A DNA stretch of 63,899 nucleotides from a virus (lineage: Duplodnaviria > Heunggongvirae > Uroviricota > Caudoviricetes): IMG/VR virus record IMGVR_UViG_643348545_000007; one strand, given 5' to 3'. Numbering within the stretch: position 1 is the stretch's first letter; every line of letters starts with the position of its first letter. A program made the position numbers. Positions 14,801 through 17,800 of the stretch are shown here, piece by piece.

Positions 14801-17800
14801 GCGCGGCTTGATATCAGCCGTGAAGAAGTTCTCAACGAACTGTGGGAACTCAAAAAAAATGGCGTTGTTGATAAAACGGGTCACACCTGGTTTCTGGCTG
14901 TCGAAGGTGAAGCCGGGGTAACCGAAGGGCAGGCACTACAACCTGAAGCGCTGGATGTGGTAACCGAAGAGGTTGCTCCAAAAGTTACCGCAGACATGAT
15001 GATTGAGTTTATCGGTCAGGATGGTGCTAAAACGTGTGAGGAACTGGCGGGTAAGTTCGGTGTCAGTACTCGCAAGGTTGCTTCCACGCTGGCGGTGGTA
15101 ACCGCAACGGGGCGGCTGGCACGCGTTAATCAGAACGGTAAATTTCGTTACTGCATGCCGGGCGATAATTTACCAGCAGAGCCGAAAGCCGCGCCGGTAA
15201 CGGAAAATGATGGTAAGGCCTTTCCTCAGCCAGCAGGTGCTGCGTTACCAGTCCGGGAAGCCGCAACACAGGAAGAAATTAAAACAGAAACTGTGGCGGA
15301 CATTGTGCAGTCGTTGCCATCGTTTACCGAAACGCAAGCAGATGAGCTGATTTTTCCGTCCCTGCGCAGGGCAAACCTGGCGCTGCGCAGGGCGAAAAGT
15401 GATGTTCAGAAGTGGGAGCGAGTCTGCGCCGCGCTGCGGGAGCTGAATAAACACCGGGATATTTTCAGTTCGATTGCTGATATTCCGGTTCATTCACCGA
15501 CAACAAAGTGATCTCCGGAGGTGCTTATGACAAGAGCATTTACACCAGAAGAGCGGGAAAAAATTAAGGGGCTGATCGTGGAATTCGTACGCCTTAACGG
15601 ACGAGGCACGATTCGGCAGTTATCGGATGAAATTGGTGTCAGTCATGCGTCTGTCGGTCGTTTATGCATGGAGCTGGCCGCCAGTGGTGATGTTTACAAT
15701 TCCGGTTACGGAGTATTCCCGTCTGAACAGGCTCGTAAGGACTGGCAAAATGCCCGCAAAAAACTCTCAAGGGCAAAGTCGAAGAAACCGGTTGTCGTTG
15801 ATCCAGACCTTATCCGGGCATTACCAGATGGGGAAATACGGCGCTACGACAGACGCTACAACACAATTTGTCGCGAGTGCCGTAACAGCGAAACGATGCA
15901 GCGTGTGCTGGCATTCTGGCGAGGGAGTGCAGAGGGATTGATGTTCTCCCCGTCGTGAATGACGGGGGCTTACGTGTTCAGAAAAGTGATTCATATAGAG
16001 GCTGAATCTGATCTTTTTTGTTCACGTCTGGCTTCCACCATTGCAGGCAGAGTGAAGGCGTAGACTAAAAACATTTCGGTAAAACTCAGGATCTGGCTTG
16101 CCTCAATTGGTGTGAAAACTTCATCTGTATGAACTGCTTTATTGGCATCAATTCGTACAATATGAGCCCATTCCTTCATCTGTTCAGTGATCAGGCCTTT
16201 TTTGTAAATCATCTGAATACGTTGCGACAGCGATTCTTTTCCTGCTTCATCGCCGAGCAGTTTTTTCGTGGAGATATCGAGGACTCTGCGACAAAGAATA
16301 ACCACTGTGTCGTACCGCCTCCTCTGTAAATCCTCTTTTGCCTCAACAAAAGTACGGTCTGCAACCGGGGGTGTATATTCTGGTGCGGTAATTTTTTTGA
16401 CCACAGGATAGATCTTGCGGAAACGGTACTGGCTATTTCCTGAAATCAGAATATCGAGGTCTTTTTTCTGGCTTTCCGCCATGGGACCGTGATAGTGGTC
16501 TGATGGGATTTCAACAATAGCAACACCTCCTCGATGACAACTTCTGCATACAAAAGCGATGTTAAAAAAAGGTGTTTTTTCAATTTGTTTTTCGGCAAAT
16601 GCCTCAATAACAGCTCGCTCTTTTAAACAGTGCGGGCATGTGATGTCAAAGGAGACTAAACCCATGGATATTCCTCGCGAAATTAAAGAAATTAACGAAA
16701 TCATTGAGGTTACTGATCGCCCCGAGTTTACCCTCATGCGTCGTTATGAAACAGGAACCGACGAACAAAAATACATCATGGTTACAGCATTGGCTGTGAT
16801 GGCGATAGAAAGGGAGCGAAGGGAAAAGGACGTAATGGTTATTCCTGAGAGAAATGATTCACCGGATTTGAGATGGCAGGAGCCGGAGTGGGATGTGGTA
16901 ATCCGGTGATTGATATTTCTCTGGGGTAAAGCGCCGCCAGAATGACGGCGCGGTAGTGGAGAGTTAAACGAAGCGGATCTGGAGTTTTTTCCCTGTAGCA
17001 CGGGCGAATTTTTTCAGTGTGGCAAATGATGGGCCGCTTGTACCTGATGCAAGATTGCTTTCCATTCTGGTTATCGCAGTCGCTTTTGTTCCCATACGTT
17101 CAGCAACTTCAGCCTGGGTTAAGCCAGCTTCTTTTCGTGCTGCCAGCATTTCATCAAGTAGTGCGAATTCATCGGCGATGGCGTCGTATTCTGCTTTTAC
17201 TGCGGGGTTAGACAACATTTTTTCTACCATTTCATCGTGTGTCATGGTAGGTGGGGTACGTTTACCAGTCATGCTTAACCTCCTTCATTCTGGTTTCAGC
17301 TTTTCTAAGCTCGGCAGGTGGAGTTTTTTGCGTTTTCTTTACAAAGCTATGCAACATAATGATTCGCTTTCCTTTTAGCGTGCAGTAAAAAACACGCCCT
17401 ATGCCTTCCGAGCCCTTAAGGCGGATTTCAAACAAACCGTCGCCAAATGCCTCTGTATGCGGGGAACCAAGATTAGCTCCGTAAATACGCATTTTCTCCG
17501 TGTACCGAATGTACCGGGCTTGTAAGGTCTCAGGAAGAGAAAGGATCTCAGCTTCAACCTCGTCACTGTAGTATTCGATAATGTAGTTTATGAGAGTAAA
17601 CATAACAAATTTGTTATATACATTCAAGGTATGTTGACGACAACACATATCCGGGATTATATTCTTCGCACGCCAGCAAAATCTGGCGTCGGGATTAGGA
17701 ACCCCGGATAGAAACCGCGACAGAGACACGCCGCGAGCGTGTTTTTTATTGTCGTATGCACACGCACATCTGAATTATGGTGGGGCGTATAGGGGAGCTG

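Follow-up and report, generated by a model that had tools for sequence, protein, structure and literature searches.

The subject of this study is a group of four genes in a stretch of viral DNA of 63,899 nucleotides (IMG/VR record IMGVR_UViG_643348545_000007), the whole of which is referred to here as the window. Particular attention is given to one gene of the group, which encodes a putative ribonuclease (RNase) resembling RAZR, the ring-activated zinc-finger RNase, and to the small gene that lies head-to-head with it. The window is a 933W-like lambdoid prophage and appears to be an stx-negative relative of the Shiga toxin (Stx) phages. Its first 25 kb is 97.8% identical to Escherichia phage PhiR5_2, with 86% of the query covered, and is matched piecewise by Stx phages. 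On the left, plus-strand genes for O-like, DnaC-like, DUF1627 and DUF977 proteins end at 15958, and on the right the plus strand continues from 17911 with genes for Ant, NinB, NinE, DUF1364, RusA and NinH. Between these flanks lie three minus-strand open reading frames (ORFs) and one short plus-strand ORF, all of them where a preliminary description of this DNA had placed them. That description took the minus-strand genes within the plus-strand replication/nin region to be a single opposite-strand block. The strand layout stands but the single block does not, as the stretch is made up of two independent cassettes of prophage cargo. They occupy a variable slot with the replication genes on one side and ant/ninB on the other, and one of the two, higBA, is missing from 5 of the 22 Escherichia coli-type loci that carry the RNase gene and its small neighbour. 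In E. coli G1/2, which is 99.7% identical across the stretch, RefSeq annotates the same four genes under the names DUF4145 domain protein, hypothetical protein, helix-turn-helix (HTH) protein and RelE/ParE toxin. The features of the two cassettes are the following.

15991-16665, minus strand: gene for a zinc-ribbon and DUF4145/HEPN protein of 224 residues, a RAZR-like putative abortive-infection RNase
16396-16665, minus strand: N-terminal domain of this protein, residues 1-90, with a C4 zinc ribbon (C10/C13/C40/C43); putative sensor
16021-16383, minus strand: linker and HEPN domain, residues 95-215
16129-16155, minus strand: predicted catalytic motif R171-x3-N175-x3-H179 (VRIDANKAVH)
16662-16667: CCATGG, overlapping divergent start codons, read from the sequence
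16664-16909, plus strand: gene for an 81-residue partner protein, phrog_8371 (function unknown), with a three-helix core (residues 1-56) and a disordered tail
16844-16926: long imperfect hairpin at the 3' end of the small gene, an inverted repeat with 30-nucleotide arms
16931-16951: GC-rich hairpin between higA and the small gene, followed by UUU on the minus strand
16964-17272, minus strand: gene for a HigA-type antitoxin of 102 residues with an XRE HTH (HTH_3, E 3.6e-11, 43.4 bits)
17262-17603, minus strand: gene for a HigB-type toxin of 113 residues, Gp49 family, RelE/ParE superfamily (PF05973, E 5.2e-27, 94.2 bits against a cut-off of 23.9)
17602-17617: candidate operator for HigA, a perfect 16-nucleotide palindrome, ATAACAAATTTGTTAT, that overlaps the start of higB

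The product of the RNase gene has the N-terminus MGLVSFDITCPHC. The longest ORF reaches back to an ATG at 16737, yet 47 of 47 aligned homologues begin at the MG(L/I) position. Residues 118-197 match Pfam DUF4145 (PF13643) with an E value of 3.9e-9 and a score of 36.9 bits (gathering cut-off 23.1); this family, of Pfam clan KNTase_C, has been placed in the HEPN superfamily (Anantharaman et al. 2013). No NCBIfam model matches the protein. A search of 5.8 billion proteins gave 83 relatives, which where named are nearly all called DUF4145, and the named ones come mainly from Enterobacterales, with one from Paraburkholderia. When 47 homologues with 36-70% identity to the window protein were aligned, C10, C13, C40, C43, R171, N175 and H179 were found to be invariant, as was a C-terminal YxFxLPxM motif (YAFTLPAMV in the window protein), while the N-terminal domain outside its four cysteines is the most variable part of the protein. 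An AlphaFold2 model built on the homologue alignment (predicted local distance difference test, pLDDT, 90.9) has a beta-rich N-terminal domain, with strands at residues 4-8, 18-27, 33-40 and 46-52, and a helical C-terminal domain in the four-helix up-down arrangement of the HEPN fold. In Foldseek searches the E values were weak and the ranking was consistent with HEPN. The HEPT structures 5YEP and 7AE2 are among the best structural matches. The family profile also has weak matches to RPB9-type zinc ribbons (E 0.4) and to the CPHC motif of RAZR.

The preliminary description had proposed an N-terminal C4 zinc ribbon, which is borne out by the invariance of the four cysteines, and a C-terminal region resembling DUF4145/HEPN, for which the Pfam match lies above the cut-off. 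It had let the second assignment depend on a HEPN-like fold and on conserved R and H residues, and both the fold and R171/H179 are present. Its catalytic signature was right in part: the R, N and H are found at VRIDANKAVH, but in the arrangement R-x3-N-x3-H rather than the literal R-x-N-x-H. R171 and H179 are separated by seven residues, as in RAZR, the canonical HEPN spacing being R-x4-6-H. The HEPN reading is therefore supported by sequence, fold and conserved residues. From the sequence we would infer RNase activity for the 224-residue protein, and likewise a defence function and a phage trigger. Two further features touch this gene. A hairpin, CCCCGTC...GACGGGG at 15945-15975, spans the DUF977 stop codon just past the RNase gene stop; it has no U tract and may terminate transcription in both directions. 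Within the RNase gene, and antisense to it, there is a terminator-like site followed by T6 (16242-16260, plus strand).

The closest characterised relative of the 224-residue protein, which the preliminary description had not named, is RAZR (formerly PD-T7-4; PDB 9Y9C; Zhang et al., Nature 2026, PMC13017515). In RAZR, a protein of 219 residues, a Cys4 zinc ribbon at the N-terminus is combined with a DUF4145/HEPN domain, and defence is abolished by R146A and by H154A. The zinc-finger domain binds ring-forming phage proteins, namely SECphi27 Gp77 and T7-type portals, upon which the trigger-bound protein assembles into a 24-mer ring and nonspecific cleavage of single-stranded RNA follows. A dimer-dimer salt bridge formed by D179, D180 and R184 is needed for the higher-order oligomers. 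Expressed alone from its native promoter RAZR defends, and its toxicity is seen only on co-production of a phage trigger protein (PMC13017515).

The window protein resembles RAZR in size, in its N-terminal Cys4 zinc ribbon (CPHC...CxxC) and C-terminal DUF4145/HEPN domain, in a conserved proline-rich linker and in R-x3-N-x3-H at aligned positions. For the comparison, the RAZR sequence was rebuilt from two overlapping database fragments and a RAZR-family alignment was made from it. Alignment of the window family with this family by hhalign gave a probability of 95.8% and an E value of 8.2e-9 over 124 columns of the linker and HEPN domain, and paired R171/N175/H179 with R146/N150/H154 of RAZR. 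Pairwise BLASTP gave about 24% identity (E 3e-5). A profile search of the PDB ranked the RAZR structure 9Y9C second, with an E value (0.19) that is not significant, and a phmmer search of the PDB with the RNase protein gave no match. As judged from these alignments, the 224-residue protein is a distant, deeply diverged RAZR-type protein, and by analogy it probably follows RAZR in the outline of its action, with a zinc-ribbon sensor and a HEPN effector. There are also clear differences between the two. The zinc-ribbon domain is longer in the window protein, at about 90 residues compared with about 65 in RAZR. The RAZR system consists of one gene, directly after an integrase in a tRNA-Gly island, whereas the window family is carried by lambdoid prophages, where it is encoded against the direction of the phage operon, and has a conserved head-to-head small gene in 24 of its 38 homologue clusters. 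A search with a RAZR fragment was set aside as a source of further comparison; it returned only proteins of at most 167 residues, and the two loci inspected were N-terminally truncated copies next to integrases, where the context is uninformative.

Other DUF4145/HEPN proteins are known from defence systems, including DS-38 (DefensePredictor; a zinc finger and HEPN, 366 residues), the BREX-associated BxaP and the anti-plasmid protein Ishtar1, and HepS (9OIK) is a prophage HEPN sensor. All four have a HEPN RNase-type effector in a single-protein or small immunity system, as would be the case here, and DS-38 also joins a zinc finger to HEPN. However their sizes and accessory domains differ, and none has been reported with a head-to-head small partner. 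The possibility that the 224-residue protein is itself DS-38 was rejected, DS-38 being WP_001313577.1, the product of a 1,101-nucleotide gene; in the DefensePredictor supplements examined, neither the protein accessions of the locus nor DUF4145 are listed against DS-38. The arrangement is also unlike HEPN-MNT (HEPT-MNT), as the small partner is not a nucleotidyltransferase (no Pfam match), the two genes are transcribed divergently, and a zinc ribbon is joined to the HEPN domain in one protein.

The protein encoded by the small gene matches phrog_8371 with an E value of 1.4e-55; searches of Pfam, NCBIfam and PADLOC gave no family for it. Its distant counterparts in other genera likewise match phrog_8371 alone and have no Pfam match. 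AlphaFold2 predicts helices at residues 3-16, 20-30 and 33-56 (pLDDT about 88), in which no antitoxin or DNA-binding (HTH) fold can be recognised, and a role as a transcription factor has no fold to support it. The core common to the family is about 52 residues long and I10, R19, P20, E21 and L24 are invariant in it. The ratio of nonsynonymous to synonymous substitution rates (dN/dS) is 0.04-0.3 for sequence pairs with dS of 0.1-1.9, which indicates that the small protein itself is under purifying selection and that this is a real gene.

The association of the small gene with the RNase gene was followed in 90 loci encoding RNase relatives, fetched from species-representative genomes and IMG/VR, with the help of a hidden Markov model built from the correspondingly placed small ORFs of Serratia, Tatumella, Rosenbergiella, Enterobacter, Photorhabdus and a Zoogloeaceae metagenome-assembled genome. 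Of the 94 sequences searched (93 loci and the window), 63 have a small ORF directly adjoining the RNase gene in head-to-head orientation, and the count of 24 clusters in 38 given above was obtained after clustering the RNase proteins at 90% identity. The linkage extends from Escherichia to Photorhabdus (38% identity) and to the Zoogloeaceae genome (35%), and in E. coli-type loci the two genes occur together in 22 of 22. An exhaustive profile search with the small protein returned only 7 representative clusters, a figure of little weight since such short ORFs are seldom called. In 24 loci the outer neighbours of the pair belong to 16 families on the side of the small gene and 13 on the side of the RNase gene, among them NinB, DUF1367, methyltransferase-like and lysis genes. 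As the neighbours vary while the pair is kept, the RNase and small genes move as a unit. The flanking phage genes run in the same direction as the small gene and opposite to the RNase gene, and the pair behaves as a two-gene cassette with one gene antisense and the other sense to the phage operon. A test of whether the small protein has diverged in step with the zinc-ribbon or HEPN domains was rejected as uninformative, because physical linkage alone would give a correlation. The suggestion that the divergent 82-codon ORF could be a partner or regulator thus gains support from comparative genomics, and the conserved head-to-head small partner is a new feature, beyond what is known of this type of RNase.

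The two genes meet within CCATGG, where the ATG on the plus strand (16664-16666) and that on the minus strand (16665-16663) have 2 nucleotides in common; the overlap noticed in the preliminary description is therefore confirmed. The Shine-Dalgarno sequence of each gene is encoded within the first codons of the other, with AAGGAG at 16649-16654 ahead of the plus-strand ATG and GAGGA on the minus strand ahead of the minus-strand ATG. The CATG overlap of the starts is found in 24 of 24 representative loci, which span 35-98% protein identity. At its other end the small gene runs into the hairpins. The C-terminal tail of the E. coli small protein (residues 57-81), which other genera lack, is encoded in the region 16844-16951. 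Folding of this region gave -42.3 kcal/mol and a z-score of -6.9 for the minus strand, and a z-score of -3.4 for the plus strand. From their sequence the hairpins may serve as a terminator or insulator of higBA, the GC-rich one with its UUU in particular.

The second cassette has the make-up of an ordinary Gp49/XRE type II toxin-antitoxin pair, as its family matches indicate, both of which exceed the Pfam cut-offs and lie well beyond chance. The ORFs of higB and higA overlap by 11 nucleotides (17262-17272) with the toxin upstream. The best PDB match of HigB is the Streptococcus pneumoniae HigB toxin (6AF3_A, E 7.5e-5) and that of HigA is the antitoxin of the same complex (6AF3_B, E 1.4e-3); HigA also matches phrog_1373 (E 2.7e-36). 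The Pfam matches together with the two 6AF3 chains uphold the earlier description of a Gp49/HigB and XRE HTH pair, toxin first and with overlapping frames. The toxin-first order, the RelE/ParE-fold Gp49 toxin and the HTH_3 antitoxin are shared with S. pneumoniae HigBA and with HigBA systems generally, as are the ORF overlap and a palindrome at the promoter-proximal end. The pair in the window differs from the solved examples in being distant from them in sequence and in lying in a prophage moron slot. Type II toxin-antitoxin operons are usually autoregulated. For this reason the palindrome over the higB start can be regarded as a candidate HigA operator, at which higBA is, by analogy, probably autoregulated. 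A promoter-like site at 17634-17663 (plus strand) points away from higB. The only ATG for higB in the window is at 17603, and codon 5 (17589-17591) is ATA here but ATG in G1/2, where RefSeq starts the gene at that codon. No Shine-Dalgarno sequence is evident ahead of either start, so the true start of HigB is uncertain.

The two cassettes are independent of each other. The pair higBA is present in 17 of the 22 E. coli-type loci with the RNase and small genes, and the HigB found beside the same neighbours is one of two alleles (99% and 68% identity). Among complete E. coli genomes the full RNase cassette was found in 36 of 5,426 (about 0.7%) and this higBA in 13 of 5,426. Of 48 E. coli genomes with a match to the cassette, about 12 are without most of it, and those listed match the small gene only. 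The slot between DUF977 and ant/ninB holds varied cargo in related prophages (loci L094, L095 and L002, the last being Shigella phage 75/02 Stx), and additional hypothetical genes are among this cargo. In STEC1589 (L094) it contains a TumE/HVO_A0114 toxin-antitoxin pair and an orphan small gene, and in JNEC-KY176 (L095) an extra HigA-family gene has been inserted. The slot resembles a hotspot at which toxin-antitoxin and putative defence genes accumulate.

The overall explanation that we favour, and which we think has somewhat the better chance of being correct, is that of two cassettes, one comprising a RAZR-type abortive-infection RNase with a partner that acts in the lytic phase and the other comprising HigBA. 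The variable zinc-ribbon domain would sense an infecting phage through one of its protein assemblies, and the HEPN RNase, through R171, N175 and H179, would then cut RNA and abort the infection. Running against the early operon, the RNase gene could be a moron-like gene expressed in lysogeny. The 81-residue three-helix protein might counteract the RNase while the prophage itself grows lytically, by inhibiting it as a protein or by serving as an off switch. Because the start codons overlap in CATG, each mRNA is antisense to the 5' end of the other, and this would lead to either/or expression. The specific proposal that the small protein is a negative partner, sparing the prophage's own development from abortion, is offered tentatively. 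It is the reading that best accounts for the tight linkage, the selection at the protein level, the shared direction with the phage operon, the lineages that do without the small gene, the existence of orphans and the lack of an HTH. A more daring version is conceivable but doubtful: no phage-encoded inhibitor of RAZR-type zinc-ribbon/HEPN RNases would have been known before the phrog_8371 protein, which would be made from the phage's early transcript to keep the prophage from setting off its own immunity gene on entering the lytic cycle, with CATG as a lysogeny/lysis switch and the orphans of other prophages as anti-defence genes directed at resident RAZR-like systems.

A number of observations weigh against this explanation or parts of it. 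The likeness to RAZR is limited to the linker and HEPN domain, and the zinc-ribbon domains cannot be aligned. The PADLOC model for PD-T7-4 (PDLC04109) gives a weak match (E 0.0024, 15.4 bits) that covers only part of the HEPN domain, and automated defence finders would probably fail to call the protein. In the AlphaFold2 model, residues 173-178 of the catalytic loop, between R171 and H179, have a pLDDT below 50. The residues of the RAZR salt bridge, D179, D180 and R184, correspond to V201, Y202 and L206 in the invariant YAFTLPAMV motif, and it follows that activation through a ring-driven oligomer may not apply; a hydrophobic oligomer interface is a possible alternative. As to the partner, a DNA search of E. 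coli genomes found a full-length RAZR locus in E. coli O103:H2 from which a small partner is absent. Within the window family 14 of the 38 clusters are without one, including a subfamily of 212-residue zinc-ribbon/HEPN proteins (loci L008, L069, L072, L074-L079 and L081-L092) whose gene, in other prophages, lies divergently just upstream of that for the small terminase subunit. Conversely there are E. coli prophages, STEC1589 among them, that have the small gene but no RNase gene. A consensus promoter scan found none for the RNase gene or the small gene, and in a position weight matrix scan of the 24 loci no promoter fell at a consistent place; a match that recurred at -31 to -35 is probably due to conserved coding sequence. 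Finally, the literature searched yields no reports of expression, toxicity or phage challenge for the family that would bear on the specific role of the partner.

A rival explanation is that the two genes are an addiction pair, in which a constitutively toxic RNase and a labile 81-residue antitoxin stabilise the prophage. Many HEPN proteins are toxins of toxin-antitoxin systems and HEPT structures are among the best structural matches here; the partner has the small size and close linkage expected of an antitoxin and is kept by purifying selection, and its orphan copies resemble orphan antitoxins. Toxin-antitoxin partners, however, are normally co-transcribed from one operon, whereas these genes are divergent with 5' ends that are mutually antisense. 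The clusters that have the RNase without a partner are also difficult to reconcile with addiction, the homologue RAZR defends alone and is toxic only with a phage trigger protein, and neither an antitoxin fold nor a DNA-binding one can be recognised in the small protein. We regard an addiction pair as unlikely. A similarly low likelihood is given to the view that the small gene is an ordinary early nin-region gene, adjacent to the RNase gene through an ancestral moron insertion. This would explain why it shares the orientation of the phage operon, why it is present without the RNase gene in some E. coli prophages, and why the RNase occurs without it at other phage positions. It does not sit well with a CATG overlap that is exact in all 24 loci down to 35% identity in spite of 16 and 13 families of outer neighbours, or with the range of outer contexts in which the pair is kept, spanning nin, methylase and lysis genes. 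Mosaic lambdoid genomes rarely keep unlinked functions together in such a fashion. That the 224-residue protein is a zinc-ribbon DNA-binding phage regulator and not an RNase is most improbable, for although phrog_1305, the PHROG family of this protein, is labelled 'DNA binding protein', a name that RefSeq phage records copy, and zinc ribbons are able to bind nucleic acids, the label is automated with no experiment found behind it, the HEPN fold is clear and the invariant R-x3-N-x3-H is catalytic in RAZR.

Beyond the cassettes, Rfam RNA elements were matched on the plus strand between 17657 and 17857, to the right of higB and upstream of the Ant gene (17911-18582).

17657-17710, plus strand: a1/b1 C4 target element (Rfam, 44.2 bits, slightly below the gathering threshold)
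17670-17747, plus strand: isrK Hfq-binding RNA (Rfam, 69.2 bits)
17773-17857, plus strand: C4 antisense RNA (Rfam, 66 bits)

In this position upstream of Ant, the predicted isrK, C4 and a1/b1 elements make up an antirepressor control module of the P1/P7 immI type. In the left flank, the O-like gene (12880-13968) contains an array of the hexamer GAACAG at 13345-13380, in 5.5 copies, which encodes an EQEQEQ run of the replication initiator; the gene is annotated as frameshifted in strain G1/2. Further to the right, no ORF of at least 180 residues was found at 20955-22373, upstream of a 667-residue ORF (22374-24377) whose counterpart in G1/2 is annotated as a SASA family carbohydrate esterase. 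There are no tRNA genes anywhere in the window, and it is from these two absences that the prophage appears to be stx-negative.

The significance of the locus lies mainly in the RNase cassette, the HigBA pair being routine. Both cassettes, and the differing toxin-antitoxin cargo of related prophages, mark the 933W-like slot between the replication genes and ant/ninB as variable for toxin-antitoxin and putative defence genes. The description of RAZR, which dates only from 2026, is of a sensor consisting of one protein and assembling on rings of phage portal or recombinase (PMC13017515). The window RNase, which has homologues across Enterobacterales and beyond, represents a deeply diverged and prophage-borne branch of that architecture which is barely detected by current defence-finder models, and this branch adds to it a partner gene that is conserved but uncharacterised and whose start overlaps that of the RNase gene in an unusual way. 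Should the partner prove to modulate the RNase, it would provide a natural inhibitor for this class of RNases, and would bear on the general question of how a prophage that carries an abortive-infection sensor of phage structural proteins spares its own lytic cycle.

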